From NCBI GenBank assembly GCA_964387845.1, contig CAYLXA010000011.1:34715-98714 (forward strand): 64,000 nt of DNA, in the 5' to 3' direction. Each line of letters opens with the position of its first letter. Within the stretch, counting starts at the first letter, position 1. This document shows, in pieces, positions 4,480 through 63,046 of the stretch. The notes under the pieces were generated by a model. The model was not told the origin of the DNA and did not search any database. It was given only the letters and a program-made list of their open reading frames with translations. The stretch comes from an uncultured bacterium. Lineage in GTDB: Bacteria; Omnitrophota; Omnitrophia; Omnitrophales; Abzuiibacteriaceae. The position numbers were made by a program, and so were the translations under genes.

Positions 4480-4505
4480 TTCGGTTAACTGAAGTTACAA
4501 AATTT

Positions 4506-4540
4506 AGGGGCAGTCCTTCGGGGCTGCCCCTATTTTTTTC
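4506..4540. terminator. bidirectional rho-independent terminator shared by convergent glnK (+) and lpxB (-)
   Basis: AGGGGCAGTCC-TTCG-GGGCTGCCCCT: a GC-rich 10-bp stem, followed by TATTTTTTT on the + strand and an A/T run on the other strand. Confidence 0.7.
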
Positions 4541-4541
4541 T

Positions 4542-5684
4542 TTAGAGGTTGTTGAGGATGGCTAGGGCCGCTCGCTCGGCAGCGCCTGAAGGCCCGATGT
4601 TGTTTCGGATTTCTTCCAAGTCGCGGATTATGCGGCTTCTTGATTCTGGATTCTGGATTAAATCCAAAATTGCTTTTGAGATTGCCGCAGGTTTTGCGTC
4701 ATGCTGGATGAATTCCTGGATAATTTTCCGGCCCGCTGCGACATTGGCGAGGCCGATGTAGGGGATTTGAATCAGCATTCGCCCCAATAGGTAAGTCGTC
4801 CAATGCGTCTTATAAAGAATCACAAAAGGCGTGAGTGTCAGTGCCGTTTCAAGTGTAGCAGTTCCGGATGTGACAATTGCGGCATCGGAGGCGTGCAGCA
4901 TGGGTTCTACCGCCTTGCCGCGTATCCGCTTAATCGATAGCATAGGCTCGTAATTTTTGAGAATTGAATCGTAGATTTCGAGGCCTACATTTTCACTTTC
5001 AGGAAGTAGAAACGAAACCGATTTGGTTTCTTGTGAAATAAGCCGGGCAGATTCCAGAATGACGGGCAAAATCCTTTCGATTTCTGTTTTGCGTGAGCCG
5101 GGCAGAAGTGCAATCACTTTTTCGGCGTTTTCCACGCCGAATTCTTTCTTTAACGCCTCTTTTGATTTTGTAACCGGCGCGCGCTCTGCGAGCGGATGGC
5201 CCACCCAAGTGACGGGAACGCCGGCTTCCTGATACATTTTCTCTTCGAAATGAAATAAAACAAGCATCCGGTCGACCGTTTCCTTGATGAGATGAATCCG
5301 GTGCTTGGCCCAAGCCCAAAGCTGCGGTGAGACATAATAAAAAGTTTTGATCCGCCGGTTGATTTGTTTTGCAAAGCGCAGATTGAAGCCGGGGTAATCA
5401 ATCAGGATGAGGCAGTCGGGCTTTAACTTCAAAACATGCTGCAGTGTGGCATAGAAAATTTTCCGGATTTTGAAATATTTAGCCAGCACGTCGCCAAATC
5501 CGATGGCAGCCAGCGCGCAAAGGTCATCAAAGAGCTTGACGCCCTCGGCTTCCATTAATTTTCCGCCGAGGCCTTCAAATTTTAAACCGGGATTTTGCTT
5601 TTTAAGCGCACGGACAAGCTCGGCACCGCGTTGGTCGCCTGAAGGTTCCCCCGCGATGAGAAAAATGGTCTTAGATTCAGGCAT
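4542..5684 (-). CDS. lpxB: lipid-A-disaccharide synthase
   Basis: N-terminal IFLIAGEPSGDQRGAELVRAL and overall GT19 similarity. The start is set at the internal ATG (MPESKTIF...) to give a typical ~380 aa length and an 8-nt overlap with the upstream gene. Confidence 0.85.
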   Translation of the reverse strand: MPESKTIFLIAGEPSGDQRGAELVRALKKQNPGLKFEGLGGKLMEAEGVKLFDDLCALAAIGFGDVLAKYFKIRKIFYATLQHVLKLKPDCLILIDYPGFNLRFAKQINRRIKTFYYVSPQLWAWAKHRIHLIKETVDRMLVLFHFEEKMYQEAGVPVTWVGHPLAERAPVTKSKEALKKEFGVENAEKVIALLPGSRKTEIERILPVILESARLISQETKSVSFLLPESENVGLEIYDSILKNYEPMLSIKRIRGKAVEPMLHASDAAIVTSGTATLETALTLTPFVILYKTHWTTYLLGRMLIQIPYIGLANVAAGRKIIQEFIQHDAKPAAISKAILDLIQNPESRSRIIRDLEEIRNNIGPSGAAERAALAILNNL

Positions 5685-11355: not shown

Positions 11356-11928
11356 ATGCAAACCGCAACTTCTGCCAAATCTGTTCTCGATGAAACCCAG
11401 AACCGCATGCAAAAATCCGTTGATGCGACCCATAGCGAATTCCGCAGTATCCATACGGGCCGTGCTTCCATTGCATTGGTCGAAGCTATTCCGGTTGAGT
11501 GCTACGGATCATCCAAGCCGCTAAAAGGTATCGCGTCCATCACAACGCCGGATGCTAAGACGATCAATATTCAACCTTGGGATCCGTCGATCATTAGCGC
11601 AATCGATAAGGCCATCGTCAAAGCCGAGCTTGGCTTGGTTCCTTCAAATGACGGCCGCGTGGTTCGGATTAAAATTCCGTCACTGACGGCAGAGCGGCGC
11701 AAAGAATTGGATAAAATTATTCGCAAAATCGCAGAAGACGGGCGCGTTTCAATCCGCAACATCCGCCACGAAGCAAATGAAGCGGTGAAGCGGCTTGAAA
11801 AAGCGAAGACGGTCAGTGAAGATGAATCGCGGGGTACTCAGAAAAAAGTTCAGGAGGCCACCGATCGCTTTACGAAAATGGTTGATGAGCTTCTGGCGAA
11901 GAAGGAAGTTGAAATTCAGGAAGTTTAA
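11356..11928 (+). CDS. frr: ribosome recycling factor
   Basis: 190 aa. RTGRASIALVE and PSLTAERRKEL motifs. GAGGA Shine-Dalgarno upstream. Confidence 0.92.
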   Translation: MQTATSAKSVLDETQNRMQKSVDATHSEFRSIHTGRASIALVEAIPVECYGSSKPLKGIASITTPDAKTINIQPWDPSIISAIDKAIVKAELGLVPSNDGRVVRIKIPSLTAERRKELDKIIRKIAEDGRVSIRNIRHEANEAVKRLEKAKTVSEDESRGTQKKVQEATDRFTKMVDELLAKKEVEIQEV

Positions 11929-11933
11929 AGACA

Positions 11934-12066
11934 CAGTATCTAGTATCTCGTATCTAGTATCTAGTTGAACTTATTATTATATGAATAGATATTGTTTCTT
12001 TCACGTTTTCCTTCCGTTCAATTCTTTACTAGATACTAGATACCAGATACAAGATACGAGATACGG
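11934..12066. repeat. long imperfect hairpin built from tandem heptamer repeats: (AGTATCT)x4 on the left arm, (NAGATAC)x5 on the right arm, ~65-nt AT-rich loop
   Basis: Direct reading: cagtatctagtatctcgtatctagtatctag ... ctagatactagataccagatacaagatacgagatac. Located between the frr stop and tRNA-Lys. Confidence 0.8.
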
Positions 12067-12073
12067 AAATAAC

Positions 12074-12147
12074 GGGCCCATAGCTCAGTCTGGTAGAGCA
12101 CTGCCCTTTTAAGGCAGGTGTCGTTGGTTCAAATCCAACTGGGCTCA
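12074..12147 (+). tRNA. tRNA-Lys (anticodon TTT)
   Basis: Manual cloverleaf fold: acceptor GGGCCCA/TGGGCTC, anticodon loop CTTTTAA, T-loop TTCAAAT. No encoded CCA. Confidence 0.85.
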
Positions 12148-12234
12148 ATTTGATTTCGGATTGTGGAGTGCAGATTGAGAGAATAGATTGATGATTGTTG
12201 ATTCCGAAATCCGAAATTAACAATCCGAAATTGT
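12148..12234. repeat. second heptamer-repeat hairpin, with TCCGAAA x3 on the right arm and its inverse ATTTCGGATTG on the left arm
   Basis: tttgatttcggattg ... gattccgaaatccgaaattaacaatccgaaattg. Located between tRNA-Lys and tRNA-Glu. Confidence 0.7.
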
Positions 12235-12247
12235 ATAATTTGTTAAT

Positions 12248-12321
12248 GTCCCCATCGTCTAGCCTGGTCAGGACAAGAGCTTTTCAAGCTCTCGGCAGGG
12301 GTTCAAATCCCCTTGGGGACA
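12248..12321 (+). tRNA. tRNA-Glu (anticodon TTC)
   Basis: GTCCCCATCGTCTAGCCTGGTCAGGAC... cloverleaf with anticodon loop TTTTCAA. Closely resembles canonical bacterial tRNA-Glu. Confidence 0.85.
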
Positions 12322-12337
12322 CTTTTCTCCGGTATTC

Positions 12338-15461: not shown

Positions 15462-15842
15462 ATGACCGTTCCGTTCCAAATTGGCGTTGATATCGTGAGC
15501 GTGCGCCGGATGGAAGAATCCATCAAGCGTCACGGAAAATCCTTTCTCGATAAAGTATTCACGGCCGGCGAGCAATCTTATTGCGAAAAAAAGCGCAATA
15601 AGTATGAAAATTACGCTGCACGGTTTGCTGCCAAAGAAGCAGTGATTAAAGCCAAGGGCGGCGGTGCGGGCCGGATGCGTTTTAAAGATATCGAAGTCAA
15701 ACGAGGCAAGAACGGCAAGCCATTTATTTCGATTACTCCTCAAGTCCGGCGTGAAATGTTCATCAAACCAAAAGCCGAATTTGAGCTGACTATGGCGCAC
15801 GAACGGGAATTTGCGATCGCAACCGTCCTGATGTCAGCCTAG
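15462..15842 (+). CDS. acpS: holo-[acyl-carrier-protein] synthase (4'-phosphopantetheinyl transferase)
   Basis: N-terminal IGVDIVSVRRME and FAAKEAVIKA motifs. ~126 aa typical size. Start at the internal ATG, 6 nt after the upstream stop. Confidence 0.85.
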   Translation: MTVPFQIGVDIVSVRRMEESIKRHGKSFLDKVFTAGEQSYCEKKRNKYENYAARFAAKEAVIKAKGGGAGRMRFKDIEVKRGKNGKPFISITPQVRREMFIKPKAEFELTMAHEREFAIATVLMSA

Positions 15843-16564: not shown

Positions 16565-17335
16565 ATGAGAGTCCTGATTACCAATGACGATGGTATTCAC
16601 TCGCCGGGGTTAAGGGCGATTGTGGATGCGATCCACAAAGAAGCCGAATGCCTGGTAGTAGCACCGCACAAGGAAAGGTCGGCGACGGCGCATTCTATTT
16701 CTCTTTATGATGAAATTTGGGTCGAATCGGTTCACATCGGGGACGGGCTAAAAGGATATTCGGTCGAAGGAACGCCGGCTGATTGTGTGAAATTTGCGTT
16801 TGCGGAGCTTTTGAAGAAGAAAGTCGACCTCATTATATCGGGCATTAACCTGGGGTTAAATACGGGTATCAGCGTTTATTATTCAGGGACTGTGTCGGCG
16901 GCGCGTGAAGGATTGATCAACGGCGTTCCGTCGATCGCCATTTCGCAAGGCAAGCAGCAAACGCGCGATTTCGCATATGCCGGGAAGCTCGTATCAAAGT
17001 TGGTGCATGGCTATAAAAATTTACATTTTCCGAAAGATACATTTTTAAATATCAATGTACCTCCCGTCGAATCTCAGCAGGTGAAAGGGATTCGAGTGAC
17101 GAAACAGGCGCATTCACGGTTTGACGAATGGTTTGAGGAAATTAAAAAATCCGGATCTAACGGCCGGAAACCGTATCAAGTCCGCGGCGATATCGAAATT
17201 TTAAGTCCGGACGGCACGAGCGATGAAGAAGCGATTCGAGAAGGTTATGTGTCGATGACGCCACTTCTTTTGGATTCAACGCATTACAAGCAGATGTCCC
17301 ATTTTGAGAAATGGGTGAGGGATAACGGAATTTAG
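16565..17335 (+). CDS. surE: 5'/3'-nucleotidase SurE
   Basis: MRVLITNDDGIHSPGL and GINLGLNTG motifs. Confidence 0.9.
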   Translation: MRVLITNDDGIHSPGLRAIVDAIHKEAECLVVAPHKERSATAHSISLYDEIWVESVHIGDGLKGYSVEGTPADCVKFAFAELLKKKVDLIISGINLGLNTGISVYYSGTVSAAREGLINGVPSIAISQGKQQTRDFAYAGKLVSKLVHGYKNLHFPKDTFLNINVPPVESQQVKGIRVTKQAHSRFDEWFEEIKKSGSNGRKPYQVRGDIEILSPDGTSDEEAIREGYVSMTPLLLDSTHYKQMSHFEKWVRDNGI

Positions 17336-17352
17336 TTTTTTGGAAATTTGAA

Positions 17353-17544
17353 TTATTTCGGAACGGCGCCGTCAAGTGTCTCGAACACAATGGTGACGAG
17401 GCTGTGGCAGCGCGGGCACTTGATTTGCTTGAAAGCTTGGATGTTGTCGTGTTTGGGCCGGTACATAATGCTCAAGATCTTGGTTGAGAACTTGGCTTCT
17501 TCGCCGGACCACTGACAGGATGTACAAGCGTATGTCTGTTTCAT
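17353..17544 (-). CDS. small zinc-ribbon protein (two CxxC pairs), hypothetical
   Basis: 63 aa. CTSC...37 aa...CPRC. Convergent with surE. No clear Shine-Dalgarno sequence. Confidence 0.35.
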   Translation of the reverse strand: MKQTYACTSCQWSGEEAKFSTKILSIMYRPKHDNIQAFKQIKCPRCHSLVTIVFETLDGAVPK

Positions 17545-17755
17545 CGTGTAGAGTTGTATCGGCAGCGGGTTAGCGAACTTAAGAAATTTGCAGGAAATTT
17601 TTAAGATTTTTTATCAGTAATACTAGATTTAGTGGTATCTAAGGTAAAATACCACAGGATTATGGGTAGCCCCGCGTCGCTGACTTTGTCAGCTCCTGGG
17701 GCGAACATCTTCCTTTATGAATAAGCACCTGAGACTTTTAAGGCAGAAGATATTC

Positions 17756-17828
<73 letters not shown>

Positions 17829-17880
17829 AATTTAGTTTTTGATATGTTGTTGTTTGTTATCACGTTGTACTAATCCTTGT

Positions 17881-17966
17881 GCCGAAGTGGCGGAACTGGC
17901 AGACGCGCTGGACTCAAAATCCAGTGGTGCTCAAACACCGTGTGGGTTCGATTCCCTCCTTCGGCA
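17881..17966 (+). tRNA. tRNA-Leu (anticodon CAA)
   Basis: 86-nt class II tRNA with a long variable arm and anticodon loop CTCAAAA. Acceptor GCCGAAG/CTTCGGC plus discriminator A. Confidence 0.8.
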
Positions 17967-18087
17967 CTGATTTTCATTAAAAATTAAATAACACTATTTG
18001 GGAATCAGCGCTGCCCCTGAATCTCGATAAAACACGTTTTTTCGTTTCTTGATATTCAGGGGCGGCACTGACTTTCATTAAAGTGTT
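17962..18087. repeat. 20-bp direct repeat CGGCACTGAYTTTCATTAAA (17962-17981 and 18063-18082). The first copy overlaps the tRNA-Leu 3' end. The repeats flank a 17-bp imperfect inverted repeat (18006-18022 / 18054-18070)
   Basis: Direct comparison of the sequence: 19 of 20 identity between the two copies; the inverted-repeat arms match 15 of 17. Confidence 0.7.
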
Positions 18088-18114
18088 CCATTCGATTATT
18101 AATCAAAGTCAGCG

Positions 18115-18141
18115 CCTGCACTTGAGTGGCAAAACTCAAGT
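18115..18141 (+). promoter_or_regulatory. perfect 10-bp stem hairpin (GCACTTGAGT-ggcaaaa-ACTCAAGTGC) 18 nt upstream of the leuS start codon
   Basis: Seen directly. Ends in GCGGCAC, as do the preceding repeat arms and the tRNA-Leu acceptor end. Confidence 0.5.
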
Positions 18142-18158
18142 GCGGCACGTGTAAAGTT

Positions 18159-20615
18159 ATGACCGACAAACACAAACCCTATCCATTCGACCAAATTGAA
18201 CCCAAATGGCAAAAGCATTGGGTTCAAAATAAAACTTTTAAGACGCCGGATCCGGGAGAGCCGGGAAGCGAAAAGCCGAAATTTTACATTCTCGACATGT
18301 TTCCGTATCCTTCGGGTGCGGGGCTTCATGTCGGCCACCCGGAAGGCTACACTGCCACCGACATTCTCGCACGCTATAAACGTATGCGTGACTTCAATGT
18401 CCTGCATCCGATGGGCTGGGATGCGTTTGGACTTCCGGCCGAGCAGCACGCACTTGAAACCGGCACGCACCCCAAAGCCACCACCGAGAAAAACATTGGT
18501 GTTTTCCGCAGGCAAATCCAATCGATCGGTTTCAGCTACGACTGGGACCGCGAAGTCGATACAACCGATCCCGATTATTTCAAATGGACACAATGGATTT
18601 TTCTCCAACTGTACAAAAAAGGGCTCGCTTACGAAGCGGAAGTTCCGGTGAATTGGTGCGAAGCGCTTGGGACTGTGCTCGCCAACGAAGAAGTGATTGA
18701 CGGCAAATCGGAGCGCGGCGGCCATCCGGTTGTGAGAAAGCCGATGCGGCAGTGGATTTTAAAAATCACGGAATATGCGGACCGGCTGCTGGAAGATTTG
18801 GAAGAACTGGATTGGTCGCCTGCTATTAAAGAAATGCAGCGCAACTGGATCGGAAAGTCCGTCGGTGCTGAAGTGGATTTTCAAGTAGCGGGTTCGAATG
18901 AGAAAATCCGCGTATTTACAACTCGTCCCGATACTTTATTTGGCGCGACTTACATGGTTTTAGCGCCTGAGCATCCGCTTGTCAAAAAAATGGCAACCGC
19001 TGATCAGAAAAAATTTGTTGAAGCTTACATTGATCAGACCGCGCGTAAAACTGACTTGCAGCGCACAGACCTAGCCAAAGAAAAAACGGGTGTCTTTACC
19101 GGCGCTTACGCCATCAATCCCGTCAATCAAAAACAAATTCCGATTTGGATTGCGGATTACGTTTTGATCAGTTACGGCACAGGAGCCATCATGGCAGTTC
19201 CTGCGCACGATGAGCGCGACTTTGAATTTGCGACAAAATTCAAACTCCCGATTGTCGAAGTGATTTCAGGCGGCAATATTTCGAACGAAGCTTTCACCGG
19301 TATCGGAAAATGCATCAACTCAACCACGCCGGATAAATCATTTTCTATCGACGGACTTCCGAGTGACGCTGCAAAGGAAAAAATCACAAAATGGCTCGAA
19401 GATAAAAAAATCGGCGAGAAATCAATTCAGTACAAGCTGCGCGACTGGCTTTTCTCGCGCCAGCGGTATTGGGGCGAGCCGATTCCGGTGATTCATGTCG
19501 ACGGCAAACCAAAACCGCTTTCTGAGAAAGATTTGCCCATCATGCTTCCAGAAACTAAATCTTACAAACCAACCGGAACCGGCGAAAGTCCGCTCGCCGG
19601 GATTCCGGATTGGGTCAACACCAAAGATCCTGAAACAGGGAAGCCGGCGAAACGCGAAACCAATACGATGCCGCAATGGGCCGGTTCCTGCTGGTATTAT
19701 TTGCGCTACCTGGATCCGAAAAATGGCAAACAACTCGTTGATCCCAAAAAAGAAAAATATTGGATGCCGGTCGACCTTTATGTCGGCGGTGCCGAGCACG
19801 CGGTGCTTCATTTATTGTACGCACGCTTTTGGCATAAAGTGCTTTACGATGCCGGCGTGGTTTCAACAAAGGAACCTTTTCAAAAACTTGTTAATCAAGG
19901 AATGATTTTGGGCGAGGACAATCAGAAAATGTCCAAATCGCGCGGCAATGTGATCAATCCCGATGACGTGATCCGCGAATATGGCGCAGACAGTCTGCGG
20001 CTTTATGAAATGTTCATGGGCCCGCTTGAAATGGTGAAGCCGTGGTCCATGCGCGGGGTGGAAGGTGTTTCACGGTTTTTGGCGCGTGTTTGGCGCCTTT
20101 TTGTTGATCGTGACGACAAGCTTCAAAAAACGATTGAAAACCGGCAGCCGACGAATGATGAATTACGCGTTCTGCATCAAGCGATTCAAAAGGTGACGGA
20201 CGATCTGGACAACATGCGTTTCAACACAGCGATTTCAGCGCTGATGGTGTTTGTGAACGAAATGACAAAAGCTGCAACGCAGCCAAAATCAATGCTCGAA
20301 ACCTTTCTGCTGCTTTTGGCGCCGTTTGCGCCGCACATTGCCGAAGAACTTTGGAGCCGGCTGGGGCATTCGCAAACACTGGCTTATGAAAAGTGGCCTT
20401 CTTACGATAAGAAGTACTTAGTTCAGGACGAGGCCGAAATTGCCGTTCAAGTATTGGGTAAAATCAAGGCACGCATCGTCGTTTCGCGCAATATATCGGA
20501 AGATGAATTAAAGGCAAAAGTACTCGAACTTCCTGATATTAAACCCCTTATCGACGGCAAAAAGATAAATAAAATCTTTATAGTCCCCGGGAGATTGGTT
20601 AATATCTTAGTCTAA
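18159..20615 (+). CDS. leuS: leucyl-tRNA synthetase
   Basis: 818 aa. [12 protein letters not shown] (HIGH-type motif), KMSKS (QKMSKSRGN) and an editing domain. Start at ATG 18159 rather than the upstream GTG. Confidence 0.93.
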
Positions 20616-20622
20616 CAGCGAT

Positions 20623-20716
20623 GCTTCAAGCTACAAGACTCAAGCTTCAGGCTTCAAGATAGTGCGTTTCTGCTTGTAGCTTGTAGCCTGTAGCTTGCAG
20701 TTTGAAATTTGAAACT
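20623..20716. repeat. third heptamer-repeat hairpin: (GCTWCAA)x5, 14-nt loop, (CTTGTAG)x4, then (TTTGAAA)x2
   Basis: gcttcaagctacaagactcaagcttcaggcttcaag atagtgcgtttctg cttgtagcttgtagcctgtagcttgcag tttgaaatttgaaa. Immediately after the leuS stop. Confidence 0.75.
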
Positions 20717-22753
20717 ATGCGACACATCCAGGTTAAAGATCGTCAGCTTCAGTTCGGCAACAAAAAAATCCCCCTTATCAGCGGCGAAGTTCATTACTGG
20801 CGCCTCAATCCCAGCTACTGGAAAGCCATTCTTACCAAAGTCAAGGAAATGGGCCTTGATATTGTTTCTACCTATGTGCCGTGGGATTATCACGAATACA
20901 AGCAAGGCAAATTCGATTTTCATGGCAAAACGGATGAAACCCGCAATCTCGTAAGCTTTCTGGAGTTAACACGCAAGATGGGTTTTTGGGTCATCATCCG
21001 GCCCGGTCCTTATATTTACAGCGAATGGCCGAATGACGGCATTCCTTCTTACGCCTATAAATATCACCGCCTTCATCCCAAGTTCCTGGGATACGCCGAA
21101 AATTATTTAAGAAAAGTCACCGCCGTCATCAAACCATATTTGGCATCGCGTTCCAAAGGCCACATTGTTCTTGTCCAAGCCGACAACGAAATCGATCCGT
21201 GGCCGGATGCATTCGGGCATCAATACGGACTTGCCGGAAAACCCGGCATGTTCCAGGAATTTTTGAGCCGGCGTTACGGCGGCGATATTGATTTGCTCAA
21301 CCGAAACTGGAAAACCGAATACAAAAGCTTCAACGAGGCCGGCCCGTTTATTGCTTGCATGATGAAAGATGAGCGCGGGCTTCCTTTAAAGGGTGATAAA
21401 GAACTCCGCCGAAATCTTGATTATTTTGAATTCAAATATGATTACGCACATCAGTGTGCCAAATGGAATATCGAGATATTCCGCAAGCTCGGCGTCGATG
21501 TTCCGCTCTATTTGAACCTGTATCCGTTTTTTTATGCCCACGATTGGGCGCGCATGCAGTCTGAAAGCGATATGGTCGGAGTCGATCTTTATCCTTCCAA
21601 TGAATTAATGGAAGATGAGCATGAACACCGCAAGATGGTTGACAAGATCCGATATTTAAAGAGCATTTCGAAAGTTTCTTATATTGCCGAATTTGCCGCA
21701 GGTGTCTGGCATGCGCGGCATTATGAATCCGGTGTCCTGATGCCGAATCACTACCGCCTGATCACACTTTCCGCTTTGCAGGGCGGTGCGGCCGGATGGA
21801 ATTGGTATATGCTCGTCAATCGCGACAATTGGTACATGTCGCCCATTAACGAATGGGGAAGGCCGCGCGCCGAGCTTTATCACGTTTTCAAAGACTTGGT
21901 TCATCTTTATCGCGAACTTGATCCGCCGTCATTGGAAAAATTAACGAACATCGCTGTGACGTTCAATCCCATTCAATATGCGGCGCGCACGATGCCGGTC
22001 GAAAGCCAGATTTTGACGGCGCTTTATGAAGCTGACCTGGATTATGAATTTATCAACCCCGAAATTGGATTGAGCGACAAGCCGATTCTGTTTTATTCCG
22101 GTAATCAATGGCTCGGCAGGAAAGCGCAGAATAATTTAAGAAAGTACGTGGAGAAAGGCGGTATTTTGGTGGCATTCCGCAATTTTCCGAGAAAAGATGA
22201 TAATTTCGAAACCTGCGATATTTTGGGCTTTGAGGAACCCTCCCGGATTTTATTTGAATTCCGTAGGAAGTTTGTCATCAAGCTTGATAAAAAATCCAGC
22301 GCAGAAGCGAATAGCTCGGTTTTTAGTTATGATCACTGCAGCGGCAAACCGGTCAAGGTGGATTTTGGCAATTACGGTTCCCATATCATCGGTTATGAGA
22401 AAAAAGTAGGGAAAGGCACGATTTTCCACTTGGGCGTGGAACCGACGAAGGAAATTATTCTGGCTATCCTTAGCTATTTCGGAATTGCGATTTATACCCA
22501 TACGACTACGCGCGATGTTAAAACCAGCTTATTTCGGAAAGGGAAACGTTTTTATTTGATCGCGGTCAATAACGGAAAAGAAGACAAAAGCGCCGTGGTC
22601 GAATTGGGCCTCCCCAACGGGCGGGTCAGGCGCGTCAAAGCTACCGACCTTCAAACGCACGAAGAAAAAGAATATGTTTGCCATCAAGGTGTTTCGGTAA
22701 ATGTCGATATTCCTAGAAAGGACGGCAAGGTCTTAGAAATCACTATTAAATAA
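20717..22753 (+). CDS. glycoside hydrolase family 35 beta-galactosidase-like enzyme
   Basis: GH35 N-terminal signature: ISGEVHYWRL, VSTYVPWDYHE, IIRPGPYIYSEWPNDGIPSY. Catalytic NEI region (VQADNEID). No signal peptide. Confidence 0.8.
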   Translation: MRHIQVKDRQLQFGNKKIPLISGEVHYWRLNPSYWKAILTKVKEMGLDIVSTYVPWDYHEYKQGKFDFHGKTDETRNLVSFLELTRKMGFWVIIRPGPYIYSEWPNDGIPSYAYKYHRLHPKFLGYAENYLRKVTAVIKPYLASRSKGHIVLVQADNEIDPWPDAFGHQYGLAGKPGMFQEFLSRRYGGDIDLLNRNWKTEYKSFNEAGPFIACMMKDERGLPLKGDKELRRNLDYFEFKYDYAHQCAKWNIEIFRKLGVDVPLYLNLYPFFYAHDWARMQSESDMVGVDLYPSNELMEDEHEHRKMVDKIRYLKSISKVSYIAEFAAGVWHARHYESGVLMPNHYRLITLSALQGGAAGWNWYMLVNRDNWYMSPINEWGRPRAELYHVFKDLVHLYRELDPPSLEKLTNIAVTFNPIQYAARTMPVESQILTALYEADLDYEFINPEIGLSDKPILFYSGNQWLGRKAQNNLRKYVEKGGILVAFRNFPRKDDNFETCDILGFEEPSRILFEFRRKFVIKLDKKSSAEANSSVFSYDHCSGKPVKVDFGNYGSHIIGYEKKVGKGTIFHLGVEPTKEIILAILSYFGIAIYTHTTTRDVKTSLFRKGKRFYLIAVNNGKEDKSAVVELGLPNGRVRRVKATDLQTHEEKEYVCHQGVSVNVDIPRKDGKVLEITIK

Positions 22754-58936: not shown

Positions 58937-61900
58937 ATGAATTCGACCCTTGCTAATCGTTCAGAAACCGGAAGTTTTTCGCGAAGTAAAAACCACCGGC
59001 CCCTCTTTGTTCTTATTTTTCTTTACGCTATGTTTTTCCTGGTTTCGAAACCATCCTTTGCCGACACCATTGTTCCGGGCGGGAATATTTCATCTAACAT
59101 AACCTGGACTTCCGCCGGAAGTCCGTACATTGTTCAGGGTAGTATCACGGTTAGTTCGGGCACTTTAACCATTGAACCGGGTGTTGTCGTAAAAGCAGAG
59201 CCAAATGCAAACGTAGAAATCCGGACTTCCGGTGGAAAACTTTTTGCGGAAGGAACGTTAGAAGAGCCAATTTTGTTTACTTCAAACAGCGCAAATCCTT
59301 CCCCGGGCGAGTGGAAAGGCATTTTCTTTGATGGAGGCACCGCGACCGATTCGTCTCTTAAGCACTGCACAATTGCCTATGCTCAGAATGGAATCCGAAT
59401 TAGTCAAAATGTTTTTATGTTTGTGCAAAACACCACGTTTCAAAACAATTCAAGCGTTGCTGTTTCAGCGCCTACTCTCAAAGAAACCCGTAATTTCGGC
59501 TCTGGAAACACTTATATTGGAAATGGCAGAGATGCAATTGAGTGGACTGCTACCTTAACCGCTACGGTCGATCAAGATATGACACTTGCCAGTCAAGGTG
59601 TCCCGTATATTGCGAATGGGAGTATCAACGTAGCTCGTTTTGTTGGTCTTTCGACTATGACTGTCCAGCCTGGTGTTGAAATCCGATTTAAACCGAATCA
59701 AAATCTAAAATTTGAAGTTGGCGGAGGTGGTTGGCAGGGCAGAGTACTTTTTCAAGGCTCGCAAGCTCAGCCGATCCGTTTAACAGTTGATAGCCAGAAC
59801 CCTACGCCCGGAAGCTGGCAGGGAATTCGGTTTGACACTGGAGCACAGCCAGGTTTTATCCTAGATTATGTCATTTTTGAATATGCCGGCGCCCCCGCTG
59901 TTAGTGTTCCGCAGGATCTTGGTTTTTATACCATCTCCCATTCTACTATTCGTCATTCATCCGGAATCGGCGTATCTTTAAGAGGGAATGGCGCGTTACA
60001 AAATAACATTATAGAAAATAATGGCGGTCAAGGAATTGAAATTTTATCCGGTTCACCATCCATCCTATCCAACACGGTTCAACAAAATGCATCAACGGGT
60101 CTTTTGATGCAATCAAATGCGGGAACTCCATTAATTGATGACAACCATTTTCTGAATAATGGAAGCCGAGCTGCGAACATCTATTCATTAAGGCAAATTC
60201 GCAATATGACTCAGAATAATACTTTTTCCGGAATAACCAATCCAATTTGCCAATGTATTGAATTTATGAATACGGCACCTACTTTGATTAATTATGATAC
60301 GACACTTTATGATTTTACTTACCCTTATGTGTTTAATGGAAGTATCCAGGTTTATCGGGAAGTTCCTCCACATTCAACATTAACCATTCAACCTGGAACC
60401 GAACTTAAATTTAAGCCAGGCCAGAATTTAATCCTCGGAATTGGATATAGACCCAACCAGTATGTGGGCGCTTTAGTTGCTTTAGGCGATGATCAAAATC
60501 CTATTCGTTTTAGTTCTGCTGCTGCAGTGCCGGCACCCGGCGATTGGCAAGGGTTGAAATTGGAAGGATTTATGATTCCCGATCAAATGTCCAATGTGAT
60601 AGTTGAGCATGCCGGAAATGCCGGTATTACCGTATGGGATACGCATCTTGAAATTAACAATTCGACCATCCAAAATAATTCCGGCGATGGTATGCAAATC
60701 GTTGGTTCCGGCCAGCTGGATGTGAAAAACACTTCATTTCTCTCTAACGGATTAAAAGCCATTAATCATACAGGATCTTCCGGCGCGGTACTCGCTCCGC
60801 TTAATTGGTTCGGAAGTTCGAACGAGCCATCCGCACAAGTTTCAGGTAGTGTTCAATATGAACCTTGGCTTATTTCAGCACCAACGACGCCGTTTCAATG
60901 GACAGCGGCCAATCTTTCATCCAAACAGTTTAATCCCGACGAAAGTTCGGCAACATTTCAATTTAGTCATCCGGAAGCTGCCAATTGGATGCTTGAAATT
61001 TTAAATTCAGACCTCAGCCAGGTACTAAAAACGATCAAGGGGCAAGGCCCGAATCCGTCCATTATTGAATGGAATGGAAATGATGATAGTAAAGAATTTT
61101 TGCCGGATGGTATGTATAAGTATCGTTTTAGCGGCTCAAGCCAAATAACCAGCCAACAGGCTGCGCCTGCGTTGGGCAACATTCAATTAAATAATGCGTT
61201 GCCTGCGGCGGAAATTATTTTGCCGACCGCTTCTCAAATTATTCCCGGCCATACAATTGTGCAAATCCAAGGAACTGCTCAAGGAAAGGGTTTCACCAAT
61301 TACACAGTCGAACGTTTTGATACGTTTCAGCAAAACAATTTTGTCCAAATTGCGGCAAGTACTTCTCCTGTTTCGGACGGTGTGCTGGCCAATTGGGATA
61401 CCGGAAATTTAGCCAACCCCATTTTCAAAACTTTGCGTTTAAGCGTTAATAATAATGCTTCTCATACCGCATTTGTTGAAATTCCGGTGACCATTTTTAA
61501 TATCTTTAATATTGCAAGTTCTCAAGGTTTTATTTCACCCAACGGCGATGGCTTGTTTGAATCCACGACAATTTCTGCAAACAGCACTTTAACTGCGGAT
61601 TGGTTGCTCCAAATTAAGAATTCTGTTAATCAAGTTGTTCGAACCGTTAATGCTGCCAATGAATCATTTTTCTCATTCGAATGGAATGGCAAGGACGACA
61701 GCAATGTTTTATTGCCTGACGGTGTTTATACCTATCATTTTACAATCACAGAGCCTGACTCGGGAGTGAATGTGCCTGCACAGCAAGGTCCGAGCGTTAT
61801 TGTCATCGATACAACAGTGCCGCAGCTTGCGATAAGCGATCCACAGATAGATCAGGTAGTTTTTGGGCTTTCATTTCCTGTAATCGGCACCGTGAGTGAT

Positions 61901-63046
61901 TTGAATATTCTTAGTTACAAAATGTTTTATGCAAATGCCGAAAATCCGAACAATTTTATTCAGTTTGCAAATGGTTCTTCAAACGTAAACAACAGTTTGC
62001 TTGGCGTCTGGACAAATTTAATCAATTTGACCAATGGCGGATACATAATCCAACTGCAGGCGACCGATCGAGGCGGCAATACAGCCGAAATTTTTGTGCC
62101 GGTTCAGCTTGACAATATCACCATTACGAATGTTGATCGTGCGCCGCTATTTTTTGATCCGCTCAATAGTGAAACAACCCAGATTTCTTATGCAATTAAC
62201 CATGATGCTTTTATAACGATCAGGATTTTTACCGAGACAAACGGTCAATTGGTTCGAACTTTGGTTAACCAAGCTCCCAAAAAAGCCGGTACCAATTTTG
62301 ACGTTTGGGACGGCCGCAATAACTCCAACCAACCGATTCCTTATGAAGCGTATTATTTCCGAATTGATGCTGAATCTCAAGCCGGAGAAGGCCGTCATGG
62401 TCAATTTGTTGATGTATTTGGCGGGTCGCCCGGGCCTAATGATTTTGAAGTTAATTTGCAAAATCTAGATTTTAATCCTTATCAAAATGAAGAATTGCTC
62501 ATTCAATACCCGGTGCATGCTCCCGGCCGTCAATTGGTGGAAATTCGTCAGGGGAATACCGCGACACGGCTTCGATTAATTGTGGAGAACGAGCCAAAAA
62601 TTCAAGGTTTAAGAACGGACAGATGGGACGGCCGCGATGATAATGGAAATATTTATTCCGGCTCTTATCATCTCTTTTTTGGAATCGCAGTTCCATTTCG
62701 CAGCAAAACCATTATTCTCAAAAACACACTTCCGGCACCTGACAATCTTTTATCAGAACCTTACTTGATCATTCCCGCATACGCTGGAGTGAGCAGCTTG
62801 CAATATGATTTATCCGAAGAATCCGGTGTTACAGTTATCGTGAAGGATTCCTTAGGTAATTATGTCAGAACTTTACTGGATCAAGTGGTTCAAGCAGCGG
62901 GAAATTACTCTGTGCTATGGGACGGAAAAAATGATTTAGGCGAATTTATTTCGGGGACCGGCAATTATTATTTCTACGTTCAAGCGGCACGGTCAGGCTC
63001 AAGCGAATCAGTTCAGGCGATAGGGAATATTCGGGTGCAAAATTGA
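58937..63046 (+). CDS. 1369-aa secreted surface protein: signal peptide, ~650 aa of right-handed parallel beta-helix repeats (pectate-lyase/NosD-like), then five FlgD-Ig-like domains
   Basis: Signal peptide LFVLIFLYAMFFLVSKPSFA. Recurring beta-helix turns (NNSGDG, GNGA, TIQNN). Five modules with the W-x-G-x-D...G-x-Y signature (EWNGNDDSKEFLPDGMYKY, FEWNGKDDSNVLLPDGVYTY, VWDGRNNSNQPIPYEAYYF, RWDGRDDNGNIYSGSYHLF, LWDGKNDLGEFISGTGNYYF). Confidence 0.8.
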   Translation: MNSTLANRSETGSFSRSKNHRPLFVLIFLYAMFFLVSKPSFADTIVPGGNISSNITWTSAGSPYIVQGSITVSSGTLTIEPGVVVKAEPNANVEIRTSGGKLFAEGTLEEPILFTSNSANPSPGEWKGIFFDGGTATDSSLKHCTIAYAQNGIRISQNVFMFVQNTTFQNNSSVAVSAPTLKETRNFGSGNTYIGNGRDAIEWTATLTATVDQDMTLASQGVPYIANGSINVARFVGLSTMTVQPGVEIRFKPNQNLKFEVGGGGWQGRVLFQGSQAQPIRLTVDSQNPTPGSWQGIRFDTGAQPGFILDYVIFEYAGAPAVSVPQDLGFYTISHSTIRHSSGIGVSLRGNGALQNNIIENNGGQGIEILSGSPSILSNTVQQNASTGLLMQSNAGTPLIDDNHFLNNGSRAANIYSLRQIRNMTQNNTFSGITNPICQCIEFMNTAPTLINYDTTLYDFTYPYVFNGSIQVYREVPPHSTLTIQPGTELKFKPGQNLILGIGYRPNQYVGALVALGDDQNPIRFSSAAAVPAPGDWQGLKLEGFMIPDQMSNVIVEHAGNAGITVWDTHLEINNSTIQNNSGDGMQIVGSGQLDVKNTSFLSNGLKAINHTGSSGAVLAPLNWFGSSNEPSAQVSGSVQYEPWLISAPTTPFQWTAANLSSKQFNPDESSATFQFSHPEAANWMLEILNSDLSQVLKTIKGQGPNPSIIEWNGNDDSKEFLPDGMYKYRFSGSSQITSQQAAPALGNIQLNNALPAAEIILPTASQIIPGHTIVQIQGTAQGKGFTNYTVERFDTFQQNNFVQIAASTSPVSDGVLANWDTGNLANPIFKTLRLSVNNNASHTAFVEIPVTIFNIFNIASSQGFISPNGDGLFESTTISANSTLTADWLLQIKNSVNQVVRTVNAANESFFSFEWNGKDDSNVLLPDGVYTYHFTITEPDSGVNVPAQQGPSVIVIDTTVPQLAISDPQIDQVVFGLSFPVIGTVSDLNILSYKMFYANAENPNNFIQFANGSSNVNNSLLGVWTNLINLTNGGYIIQLQATDRGGNTAEIFVPVQLDNITITNVDRAPLFFDPLNSETTQISYAINHDAFITIRIFTETNGQLVRTLVNQAPKKAGTNFDVWDGRNNSNQPIPYEAYYFRIDAESQAGEGRHGQFVDVFGGSPGPNDFEVNLQNLDFNPYQNEELLIQYPVHAPGRQLVEIRQGNTATRLRLIVENEPKIQGLRTDRWDGRDDNGNIYSGSYHLFFGIAVPFRSKTIILKNTLPAPDNLLSEPYLIIPAYAGVSSLQYDLSEESGVTVIVKDSLGNYVRTLLDQVVQAAGNYSVLWDGKNDLGEFISGTGNYYFYVQAARSGSSESVQAIGNIRVQN

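Follow-up and report, generated by a model that had tools for sequence, protein, structure and literature searches.

Introduction

Heptanucleotide repeats, known since 1990, were reportedly singled out in 2007 as the most frequent of the long simple repeats of bacteria; to our knowledge, their biology is still essentially unexplained. In the STRR sequences of heterocystous cyanobacteria, a few fixed tandem heptanucleotide units are dispersed in many non-coding copies. REP/REPIN sequences and the Rickettsia palindromic elements are short, palindromic and intergenic and occur as near-identical full-length copies; REPINs go with RAYT transposases, and Rickettsia palindromic elements are also found in-frame inside open reading frames.

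Heptanucleotides have been described as the most abundant class of long simple-sequence repeats, with polymerase slippage as the proposed mechanism (Mrazek 2007, as summarised in PMC4679880 and PMC4692102). Xanthomonas genomes contain 70–75 convergent pairs of GGGAATC heptamer arrays (Rehm et al. 2015, PMC4692102), most of them held at the same gene context between species with varying length. TAACTGA repeats occur in Beggiatoaceae, cyanobacteria and Bacteroidetes (MacGregor 2015, PMC4679880), with a patchy distribution that suggests horizontal spread by a mechanism that is not known.

Here we analyse hairpins with tandem 7-nt arms (heptad hairpins) in a 64-kb stretch of DNA from a Candidatus Omnitrophota bacterium, hereafter the window. 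A preliminary description had remarked that they recall short tandemly repeated heptamer families, and they do belong with the phenomena reported in PMC4692102 and PMC4679880. The best reading is of a lineage variant of the known heptanucleotide-repeat phenomenon. Like the Xanthomonas arrays, they are intergenic tandem heptamers facing an opposite-strand array, with stem-loop potential; whereas a single G-rich, G-quadruplex-capable unit dominates the Xanthomonas genome, the window has AT-rich units that differ by locus, in arrays of 4–6 units, one set being shared with phages. They resemble the long heptanucleotide repeats of the 2007 survey, as summarised, in the over-representation of period 7 and the mostly non-coding location of the arrays. 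That survey concerns direct arrays, and inverted pairing, cross-species hairpin conservation and composite units common to several genomes lie outside what its summaries describe. TAACTGA arrays are likewise heptameric, with 2–6 copies a few nucleotides upstream of start codons, but are almost all direct (1 inverted in 170), built of another unit and devoid of hairpins (PMC4679880). Tandem non-coding heptamers are common to the window and STRR, a hairpin arrangement not being a defining trait of the latter.

Results

Three intergenic hairpins with heptamer arms

Three spacers of the window carry hairpins with tandem 7-nt arms, namely those of frr→tRNA-Lys (locus 1), tRNA-Lys→tRNA-Glu (locus 2) and leuS→GH35 gene (locus 3), in agreement with the preliminary description, whose list of three loci proved complete for the window. 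The features are as follows.

11356–11928, + strand: frr (ribosome recycling factor; PF01765), last of the rpsB-tsf-pyrH-frr cluster, upstream gene of hairpin 1
11935–11965, + strand: hairpin 1 5' arm, GTATCTA GTATCTC GTATCTA GTATCTA GT (TRF period 7, 4.4 copies; pattern search), pairing with 12028–12057
11966–12026, + strand: hairpin 1 loop, ~61 nt, with inner stem 11966–11970/12016–12020 (RNA fold)
12027–12064, + strand: hairpin 1 3' arm, TAGATAC TAGATAC CAGATAC AAGATAC GAGATAC (TRF period 7, 5.4 copies)
12074–12147, + strand: tRNA-Lys(UUU) (ARAGORN; Rfam)
12148–12247, + strand: hairpin 2, full tRNA-Lys/tRNA-Glu spacer (degenerate heptamer array, fold, lag-7 identity)
12248–12322, + strand: tRNA-Glu(UUC) (ARAGORN; Rfam)
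18126–20615, + strand: leuS (open reading frame list; Pfam tRNA-synt_1/Anticodon_1 on orthologues), upstream gene of hairpin 3
20623–20658, + strand: hairpin 3 5' arm, GCTTCAA GCTACAA GACTCAA GCTTCAG GCTTCAA G (TRF period 7, 5.1 copies; (GCTWCAA)x5)
20659–20671, + strand: hairpin 3 loop (fold)
20672–20713, + strand: hairpin 3 3' arm, GCTTGTA GCTTGTA GCCTGTA GCTTGCA GTTTGAA ATTTGAA (TRF; six in-phase units)
20717–22753, + strand: GH35/GH42-type beta-galactosidase gene (100% identical protein match; Pfam), downstream gene of hairpin 3

At each locus the same 7-nt unit is arrayed in tandem on both strands, each non-coding array facing its own reverse complement. Lag-7 identity exceeded 0.5 in 3 of 26 intergenic regions, which are these three loci, against a background of ~0.25. 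Among 2556 sliding 100-nt windows, a lag identity of 0.48 was reached by three lag-7 windows (loci 2 and 3) and one lag-9 window, and the observed value was matched by none of 5000 shuffles at any lag from 3 to 12. Strict run detection over periods 4–12 returned four period-7 runs against 0–1 at other periods, and related Omnitrophota loci gave five period-7 arrays against 0–1. The units differ among loci 1, 2 and 3 (GTATCTN, TCCGAAA and GCTWCAA), and none of them contains a G-run of the kind that makes GGGAATC a G-quadruplex-type unit. Each is confined to one locus within the window; those of locus 1 recur at other loci in a second Omnitrophota contig (L085) and in phage contigs. The hairpins had been placed always directly at 3' ends of genes or tRNAs; they do lie near upstream 3' ends, but equally near downstream starts (9 nt from the array to tRNA-Lys at locus 1, 3 nt to the GH35 ATG at locus 3).

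The locus-1 arrays, (GTATCTN)x4.4 opposite (NAGATAC)x5.4, have a perfect GTATCT core in all ten units, the seventh base alone being variable, and pattern search gave 7 matches against 0.03 expected. The predicted RNA fold (-44.3 kcal/mol, z = -5.9) was equalled by none of 200 shuffles, the DNA fold gave z = -5.8, and the stem zips in four registers, from -36.6 to -44.3 kcal/mol. No U-tract follows hairpin 1, where GGAAATAAC leads into the tRNA.

The entire 100-nt spacer of locus 2 is a degenerate heptamer array (lag-7 identity 0.53), with TCCGAAA twice at 12203–12217 and a third time at 12224–12230; its stem has 13 bp (12152–12164 with 12220–12232) and its fold has z = -2.8. The orthologous spacer in a related species (L038) has clear (TTTNGGA)4/(TCNGAAA)n arms.

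At locus 3, the right arm stops 3 nt short of the ATG at 20717 and has six units, as it does in the orthologue of another relative (L037). A (TTTGAAA)2 element noted there earlier is present as sequence, but constitutes the degenerate in-phase tail of the right array rather than a separate element, and L037 carries GCCTGTA GCCTGAA in its place. Folding is weak in the window (z = -1.6, 12 of 200 shuffles as good) and stronger in L037 (z = -3.95). An origin of locus 3 from AAGCTT palindromes was considered and dropped, only one intact AAGCTT being present.

Conservation, gain and loss among relatives

In six Omnitrophota species (the window, L037, L038, L045, L046 and L084), the locus-1 hairpin has one and the same position and unit set; among these species frr is 73–91% identical in amino acids and the whole locus about 77–81% in DNA. 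With six sequences, the repeats in the arms leave the register of an alignment arbitrary, and the arms were therefore compared unit by unit. In 6/6 species, GTATCTC/GTATTTC/GTGAAGC units directly follow the frr stop codon and GAGATAC/GAAATAC units lie 7–10 nt upstream of tRNA-Lys, while the loops are unalignable. Changes appear on both arms: L045 has GTATTTC matched by GAAATAC, and the window GTATCTA matched by TAGATAC. Unit number ranges from 1–2 (L046) up to 5, the window copy being the most homogenised. Judged from this comparison, the locus-1 element is old and has been maintained with the same units.

Two other relatives lack hairpin 1: in L047, frr is followed by 8 nt and then tRNA-Lys, and L002 has a small GC hairpin and then TTT at this position. 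A scan of frr in GTDB representatives, which do not include the window's species, returned a nearest sequence 74% identical and without the hairpin. A promoter in the hairpin-1 loop was sought by sigma-70 scan of the spacers of eight species and discarded, as matches were weak and inconsistently placed; the loops of the six species yielded no consistent sigma-70 promoter. Together with the short L047 gap, this suggests that frr and tRNA-Lys may be co-transcribed.

Hairpin 3 is present in the window and L037, whereas leuS and the next gene are 0–5 nt apart, abutting or overlapping, in L038, L085 and L086; on this distribution, it is a recent gain. A further heptad hairpin, (AAAGTTA)n, was found in L037 only, between convergent genes after surE, and is followed by a T-rich tract. 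At the surE locus, as at loci 2 and 3, a hairpin may be present in one close relative and missing from another. A metagenome scan with a SurE alignment recovered three loci only, the lineage being rare in that collection.

Slipped-strand variation between strains, which had been expected for tandem heptamers, was not seen. The hairpins are identical in four samples of the L038 species (99.97–100% identical), and contigs of the one other assembly of the window strain, Logan SRR15237813, agree exactly with the parts of the window that they cover, although this assembly may go back to the same sequencing data and so may not be an independent sample. A change in unit number was seen only between species and between two phages, and slippage at such short, imperfect arrays would therefore be slow. 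Heptamer hairpins with other units were also found in Bacteroidales and Patescibacteria loci, and in pooled bacterial loci (630 kb) arrays were paired in 10/16 cases at period 7 against 1/21 at other periods.

Locus-1 units in a second Omnitrophota contig and in phages

A 24-nt exact match links locus 1 of L037 to position 14038 of L085, where two hairpins of locus-1 units lie inside an open giant ORF. The copies are in-frame; the first pair replaces residues of equal length without insertion, and one arm falls within a 14-aa insertion relative to a homologue. In IMG/VR, GTATYTCGTGAAGCGTAT had 21 matches, 17 of them in in-phase arrays, with at least 13 forming hairpins (z -2.0 to -6.9). The same 18–24-nt composites of A-B-A heptads (A, GTATCTC; B, GTGAAGC) thus occur in phages of 48–64% GC and in Omnitrophota chromosomes, and this locus-1 vocabulary, with its complements, is by sequence match common to another Omnitrophota locus and to phages. 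The units being shared with L085 and phages, sequence and not fold alone would therefore be constrained or horizontally spread. Their occurrence in six Omnitrophota species, L085 and phage contigs, together with the other-unit hairpins of Bacteroidales and Patescibacteria, contradicts the earlier suggestion of a genome-specific class.

Unit order, unit number and loop differ in each copy, and several copies occur on a single phage contig. In the phage copies, A and B units take turns along the left arm, B* makes up most of the right one, and of the left-arm units only B can pair, with B*; CGT on one arm and ACG on the other recur at 7-nt intervals, strict arm complementarity not being conserved. 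T-runs follow several phage copies. Between two phage contigs with ~97% identical flanks (L087 and L094), the hairpin is inverted in place with two extra units, which lends some support to the recombination hotspot proposed in the preliminary description.

Arrays of the window units are 5–9 times commoner in IMG/VR than those of same-composition controls, of which there were two only. Pairing was considered as a general property of heptamer arrays and rejected: (GTATCTN)3 arrays in IMG/VR were never paired (0/37), GCTTCAA arrays were so in 2/68 cases, and the property held in part for TCCGAAA (15/46). The (GTATCTN)3 result implies that an array does not of itself entail pairing. A common function of the genes 3' of the phage arrays was also sought, and PHROGs annotates 3/10 of them (terS, a head-tail adaptor and an Arc-like protein), with no theme.

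Terminators, RNA families and mobile elements

Heptad hairpins share with Rho-independent terminators the placement of a stem-loop after a gene, but not the short GC-rich stem, the 3–8 nt loop or, at locus 1, the U-tract. The stems in the window are AT-rich, 13–33 bp long, with a mismatch every 7th position and loops of 13–61 nt, bearing out the view that they are not standard terminators. None of the three was among the sites returned by a terminator scan of the window, which has a textbook GC-stem and T-run terminator elsewhere (4499–4538), and the sequence 3' of hairpins 2 and 3 is mixed A/T rather than a U-tract. Since hairpin 3 stands between genes that abut or overlap in relatives, an obligatory terminator is disfavoured there.

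Membership in a known RNA family was rejected, as Rfam at gathering and E-value thresholds returned tRNAs only (window and ten related or phage loci), its sub-threshold matches being generic long-hairpin (microRNA precursor) ones. Mobile-element enzymes were likewise sought, and a Pfam scan of all major window ORFs returned housekeeping genes only. No transposase, RAYT or integrase adjoins any copy; near-identical copies and transposases are both absent from the 64-kb window, as are transposases from the relatives' gene tables, and no MITE-like target-site duplication or flanking direct repeat is visible at loci 1 or 3. Empty sites for locus 3 do exist in relatives. The in-frame copies of L085 recall the Rickettsia palindromic elements, but unlike those and REP/REPIN sequences the heptad copies all differ in the order and number of their units and in their loops, and no RAYT-type enzyme was seen.

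The window encodes a single integrase-family protein, located after dprA-topA and read as XerC/D-like.

Discussion

The heptad hairpins are real and shared among genomes, and are neither a chance pattern nor ordinary terminators, with a function that is putative. Our leading, if tentative, interpretation is that they are slippage-built, arm-homogenised intergenic stem-loops serving as putative transcript punctuation between adjacent units, and not canonical Rho-independent terminators. Judging by comparative anatomy, a seed stem at a gene boundary would be extended and remodelled in 7-nt quanta through slipped-strand duplication and loss, the step of slippage reflecting the known bacterial bias towards heptanucleotide repeats. 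The likeness of the arms might be kept by arm-to-arm copying or recombination, through template switching across the quasi-palindrome or inversion between the arms. The periodicity of both arms lets the stem zip in several registers and would make it tolerant of gain or loss of units. The hairpins probably act as punctuation at the RNA level: the stem-loop may cap and protect the upstream mRNA 3' end after excision of a downstream tRNA or processing of an operon mRNA, and could hide or expose the bases that immediately precede the downstream gene. Counting against such a role, three relatives do without hairpin 3, and L002 and L047 have no hairpin 1; any function is therefore not essential.

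These absences, together with the variable presence at locus 2 and the surE locus, would be expected of a neutral by-product of heptamer slippage and quasi-palindrome template switching in tolerant non-coding DNA, without function for the cell. We regard such an origin as unlikely, though deserving real weight, as it would also fit units that differ between loci, loops that are not conserved and the dominance of period 7 whatever the unit, unrelated phyla included, and slippage is the explanation given in the literature (PMC4679880, PMC4692102). It is hard to reconcile with locus 1, where site, units and complementary arms are the same in six species despite loops beyond alignment, with the 18–24-nt composite found in phages of very different GC, or with the 5–9-fold excess of window-unit arrays in IMG/VR over the two same-composition controls. 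A small mobile or copy-pasted palindromic element of the MITE, REPIN or Rickettsia type, spreading between loci, genomes and phages, would explain the 24-nt identity between unrelated loci, the in-frame copies in the L085 giant ORF with one arm in a 14-aa insertion, the clean absence at leuS/GH35 in three relatives, the in-place inversion between near-identical phages and the multiple copies per phage contig. We nevertheless hold it to be improbable: loci 1 and 3 show no target-site duplication, no candidate enzyme lies beside any copy and the window proteins are housekeeping, the three window loci have three different units, copies differ in order and number of units and in loop as transposed copies do not, and the first L085 pair is an equal-length replacement of residues.

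The ribbon-helix-helix omega repressor of plasmid pSM19035 binds serial WATCACW heptads, both direct and inverted, and the hairpins might similarly be arrays of operators in double-stranded DNA, their 7-bp heptads being read cooperatively by proteins and their hairpin potential being incidental. In favour of this, the phage copies conserve CGT/ACG periodicity over strict arm complementarity, recur within a phage genome at short distances before gene starts and in one case adjoin a gene that matches Arc-like repressor families; the unit GCTTCAC also has a TCAC core in common with the omega heptad. A ribbon-helix-helix-like protein is, however, encoded by only 1/10 adjacent genes, the copies on chromosomes are found 3' of frr, between tRNAs and within an ORF, with no evident promoters, three units within one 9-kb stretch would need three proteins, and the compensatory changes on both arms at locus 1 fit pairing, all of which makes operator arrays hardly probable. 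Ordinary Rho-independent terminators with incidentally repetitive stems are very improbable. Their location after frr and leuS, the small GC hairpin and TTT of L002, the T-rich tract after the L037 surE hairpin between convergent genes and the T-runs after several phage copies are as expected of terminators, but hairpin 1 is followed by GGAAATAAC and a tRNA, the AT-rich stems and 13–61 nt loops escaped the terminator scan, the hairpin-3 site corresponds to overlapping or abutting genes in relatives, and canonical terminators exist elsewhere in the genome.

Slippage-built punctuation does not cover every observation, as slippage alone fails to explain the A-B-A heptads shared between phages of 48–64% GC and Omnitrophota chromosomes. 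The phage arms, which by their sequence are not simple complements, hint at a sequence-reading factor outside the slippage and stem-loop explanation. The GTATCTC/GTGAAGC (A/B) hairpin could then represent an undescribed family of cis-elements common to Omnitrophota chromosomes and phages, kept by a dedicated heptad-reading factor, a speculative proposal that we consider distinctly unlikely. Candidates for such a factor would be a nucleic-acid-binding protein that reads 7-nt units, or a nuclease or recombinase that acts on the folded form. If this held true, heptamer arrays would form a modular "heptad code" for gene-boundary control, whose inverted layout would permit switching by inversion.

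The heptad hairpins offer a tractable case in heptanucleotide-repeat biology, in which one hairpin is kept in synteny across a family of uncultivated bacteria, another is a recent gain, and phages have the same composite units, with inversion and unit gain documented between near-identical genomes. They also matter for the annotation and assembly of such genomes. If neutral, they would cleanly illustrate, in nature, the construction of long stems by slippage and template switching; should a factor read the units, or should the hairpins define where mRNA and tRNA are processed, they would add a new level of control at gene boundaries in a little-known phylum and its viruses.

Heptad hairpins in the window

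The heptamer hairpins that a preliminary description placed at three loci agree with the sequence at all three, namely the spacers between frr and tRNA-Lys (hairpin 1), between tRNA-Lys and tRNA-Glu (hairpin 2) and between leuS and a GH35-type gene (hairpin 3). Their arms are periodic and complementary, a tandem array of 7-nt units facing an array of its reverse complement. Lag-7 identity (the share of bases equal to the base 7 nt away) exceeds 0.5 in three of 26 intergenic regions of the window, which are the three hairpin loci only. Across 2,556 sliding windows, a value of 0.48 was reached at lag 7 only, bar one lag-9 window, and none of 5,000 shuffles equaled the observed lag identity values. 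The sole period-7 run in coding DNA of the window, (TTCTGGA)x3.3, lies on the minus strand in lpxB (4637-4659), without an inverted partner. Hairpin 1 in the window and the 5' arms of its counterparts in Omnitrophota relatives are as follows:

11935-11965, 5' arm, GTATCTA GTATCTC GTATCTA GTATCTA GT, 3' of the frr stop codon (11928)
between the two arms, 61-nt loop
12027-12064, 3' arm, TAGATAC TAGATAC CAGATAC AAGATAC GAGATAC, 9 nt upstream of tRNA-Lys
L037, 5' arm, GTATCTC GTATCTC GTGAAGC GTATCTC GTAAAAA
L045, 5' arm, GTATTTC GTAGTTA GTATCTC GTATTTC GTAAACA
L084, 5' arm, GTATTTC GTGAAGC GTATCTC GCAAAAC
L046, 5' arm, GTATCTC GCAAAAA

In hairpin 1 the GTATCT core is perfect in 10 of 10 units, with variation confined to the seventh base, and a search with the unit pattern found 7 matches against 0.03 expected. 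Its RNA fold reaches −44.3 kcal/mol, compared with −23.0 ± 3.6 for shuffles (z = −5.9; z = −5.8 when folded as DNA), and the stem has at least four pairing registers, from −36.6 to −44.3 kcal/mol. Hairpin 2 combines a 13-bp stem with TCCGAAA repeats, and the entire 100-nt spacer, in heptamer phase, is a decayed heptamer array (lag-7 identity 0.53). Hairpin 3 sets five GCTWCAA units opposite six in-phase units, GCTTGTA x4 followed by GTTTGAA and ATTTGAA; the facing arrays reported at this locus stand, and what had been read as a separate (TTTGAAA)2 element is the tail of the right array. Folding better than shuffled controls holds for hairpins 1 and 2 (z = −2.8 for the latter) and is weak for hairpin 3 (z = −1.6).

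A canonical bidirectional intrinsic terminator is present elsewhere in the window:

4499-4538, GGGGCAGTCC-TTCG-GGGCTGCCCC, GC stem with A- and T-runs at the flanks, between convergent glnB-like and lpxB genes

Ordinary terminators are thus part of this genome's repertoire, and the heptad hairpins differ from them in kind: short GC stems and small loops are missing from all three, and locus 1 lacks a U-tract, in keeping with the initial view that they are not standard terminators. A search of the window against Rfam matched its four tRNAs alone, and no family was found for the hairpins in the window, related or phage loci. The spacer between tRNA-Leu and leuS holds two further hairpins without periodicity, which overlap (18005-18071 and 18064-18116); the former is kept in the related locus L038 (about 16880-16940).

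The hairpins are surrounded by housekeeping genes: rpsB-tsf-pyrH-frr, two tRNAs, a GT87 glycosyltransferase and more genes to surE, followed by tRNA-Ala, tRNA-Leu, leuS and the GH35-type gene. Other window genes cover amino-acid, shikimate and LPS-core biosynthesis, together with dprA-topA-xerC, and a protein domain scan of the window detected no transposase or RAYT. An ORF of ~63 aa between surE and tRNA-Ala (17350-17545, minus strand; L037 14006-14197) is conserved among relatives and has no Pfam match. A lower-GC stretch (0.41-0.45) contains a gene for a 1369-aa protein (58937-63046) with beta-helix/NosD, CHU_C (type IX secretion signal) and FlgD Ig-like domains.

Conservation and turnover among relatives

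Syntenic loci of relatives were fetched via frr and GH35 homologues. The frr protein assigns the window to Candidatus Omnitrophota, its nearest GTDB representative being 74% identical. At the level of whole-locus DNA, L037 and L038 are each ~77% identical to the window and 81.5% identical to each other. Hairpin 1 was found in six species (window, L037, L038, L045, L046 and L084), in all of which it begins a few nt past the frr stop, ends 7-10 nt short of tRNA-Lys and draws on a common unit set; it is kept across family-level divergence. The 3' arms of relatives include units of the form GAGATAC or GAAATAC; their loops cannot be aligned. Changes are seen in both arms, GTATTTC occurring with GAAATAC and, in the window, GTATCTA with TAGATAC. 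Folds are significant in L037 (z = −5.5), L038 (z = −4.7) and L045 (z = −2.8), and L046 retains a 10-bp core stem only. Hairpin 1 is absent from the frr-tRNA-Lys site of two other Omnitrophota, L047, with 8 nt between frr and tRNA-Lys, and L002, with a small GC hairpin at this position.

Hairpin 2 is common to L038, where the arms are clearer, (TTTNGGA)4/(TCNGAAA)n; L037 has unrelated hairpins instead. Hairpin 3 is shared with L037, with equal unit number, many substitutions and a good fold (z = −3.95). L038, L085 and L086 lack hairpin 3, with 0-5 nt separating leuS from the gene that follows, and it is therefore read as a gain. L037 alone carries a fourth heptad hairpin, (AAAGTTA)n/(TAACTTT)n, after surE between convergent genes.

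Slippage-driven variation between strains, as originally anticipated, was not borne out: the hairpins do not vary across the four L038-species samples compared (99.97-100% identity), and the window strain's contigs in Logan match the window base for base and may stem from the same sequencing data. The only direct evidence of short-term hairpin dynamics is a pair of phage-type contigs (L087 6118-6202 and L094 3933-4010), in which a heptad hairpin of the GTATCTC/GTGAAGC (A/B) type has been inverted whole in place between flanks ~97% identical, with loop GTTGTTTTTC versus GAAAAACAAC and a unit number differing by two. Over evolutionary time, units have been gained, lost, homogenized and inverted.

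The tRNA neighborhoods are rearrangement hot spots. A second copy of the final 18-20 nt of tRNA-Glu or tRNA-Lys lies ~110-130 nt away in L038 (10962-11094), L046 (3845-3980) and L047 (9967-10062), and L045 (10740-10820) has one of the first ~20 nt of tRNA-Lys in the same distance range, with hairpin-rich filler in between; these duplicated ends resemble relics of att sites from small elements that are integrated or mostly deleted. In L037 (14369-14545; window 17756-17967), tRNA-Ala, with a differing T-arm, and tRNA-Leu are each flipped in strand and keep the left-to-right order of the window and L038, an arrangement that a simple block inversion would not give. In L045 (11189-11263), L046 (4017-4093) and L047 (10660-10735), it is tRNA-Glu that is inverted.

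Heptad units in a giant ORF, phages and outgroups

The relative L085 shares bactofilin-to-GH35 synteny with the window (GH35 protein 73% identical) and carries two more hairpins of GTATCTC (A), GTATTTC and GTGAAGC (B) units and their complements (both z about −2.7), one of them identical to L037 locus 1 over a 24-nt stretch. Both lie in frame within an open giant ORF. Compared with the homologous L086 protein, one hairpin pair in L085 swaps residues at equal length and the other has one arm in a 14-aa insertion. These ORFs (L085 13237-21411; L086 5795-14073) follow GH35/AAA_22 genes, are called as 6537 and 4860 aa, run off their loci and are 44% identical over the first ~600 aa, with no Pfam domain; the corresponding position in the window has none.

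In IMG/VR, the A-B-A composite GTATYTCGTGAAGCGTAT matched 21 contigs, 17 of which hold in-phase heptad arrays, with at least 13 hairpins with loops of 8-10 nt; the other four look like chance matches. The hairpins (z −2.0 to −6.9) share a 7-nt period of CGT in the 5' arm and of ACG in the 3' arm, and pair mainly GTGAAGC with GCTTCAC, GTATCTC units forming internal loops. By gene content (terS, head-tail adaptor) the contigs are phage-like; their GC spans 48-64%, and many carry several arrays directly upstream of ORF starts. Beside one hairpin starts a phage gene (L107 4670-5017, minus strand) whose product matches Arc-like (ribbon-helix-helix) repressor PHROGs at its C-terminus. A/B heptads thus occur at a conserved chromosomal site, within an ORF and in diverse phages, and the proposal of a genome-specific repeat class has to be abandoned.

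Arrays of other window units in IMG/VR comprise (GCTTCAA)2.5 in 66 contigs and (TCCGAAA)2.5 in 43, compared with 5 and 13 contigs for two permuted control units of the same composition. One in three TCCGAAA arrays is paired as a hairpin, and an ORF starts within 60 nt downstream in 28 of 46. The TCCGAAA phage loci (L174-L216, notably from samples 3300033145-3300033154) contain 119 lag-7 arrays, compared with 23 for lag 6 and 11 for lag 8 (27.6, 5.3 and 2.6 per 100 kb), an excess partly built in because each locus was ascertained on a heptamer array; 22 of 43 hold at least two different heptamer units. The same few metagenomes turn up in every heptamer scan, controls included.

Outgroup loci (Bacteroidales, Patescibacteria) also have heptamer hairpins, built from different units again. 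Sites in Bacteroidales, Bacteroidetes and Magasanikiibacteriota MAGs (L011 15380-15409 with 15758-15793, L011 4207-4300, L012 2900-2975, L008 15829-15925) include arrays facing complements, (GAGAATT)4/(ATTCTCA), (ATTAGAA)3 and (AATTACG)n with (CGTAATT)n ~350 nt apart.

Possible origin and function

The literature searched contained these repeat strings in no relevant context. The suggested kinship with heptamer repeat families is upheld by the closest described case, the convergent GGGAATC arrays of Xanthomonas (PMC4692102), which share the architecture, a kept gene context and variable length, but use a single G-rich unit genome-wide. TAACTGA arrays (PMC4679880) are likewise short, near start codons and patchy across phyla, but are direct repeats. 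MITEs and intrinsic terminators each differ in at least one defining feature, and STRR, REP/REPIN and Rickettsia palindromic elements find no full match within the loci compared: in the window each unit is confined to one locus, and neither near-identical copies nor a transposase turned up there. Overall, the original observation is confirmed and its interpretation partly supported.

The arrays may grow in 7-nt steps through slippage, and one arm may be copied to the other by template switching or recombination between inverted arms. Two reports (PMC4679880, PMC4692102) give slippage as the proposed cause of a general excess of heptanucleotide repeats. Slippage does not account for the composite units shared with phages, which leaves some weight to two other readings: that the hairpins are a mobile palindromic element spreading horizontally, which we hold to be unlikely, or that the arrays are operators for a sequence-reading factor of the omega/ribbon-helix-helix type, which we hold to be about as unlikely.

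The absence of hairpins 1 and 3 from some relatives argues against an essential role. Judging by the 8-nt spacing in L047, frr and tRNA-Lys evidently share a transcript in at least one relative, a scan of relatives' spacers revealed no apparent promoter in the hairpin 1 loops, and the stem ends a few nt before the tRNA. The simplest role for hairpin 1 would therefore be to leave a protected 3' end on the upstream mRNA once the tRNA is processed. By analogy, hairpin 2 may be a spacer element between the two tRNAs, and hairpin 3, after leuS, may serve stability or processing between cistrons.
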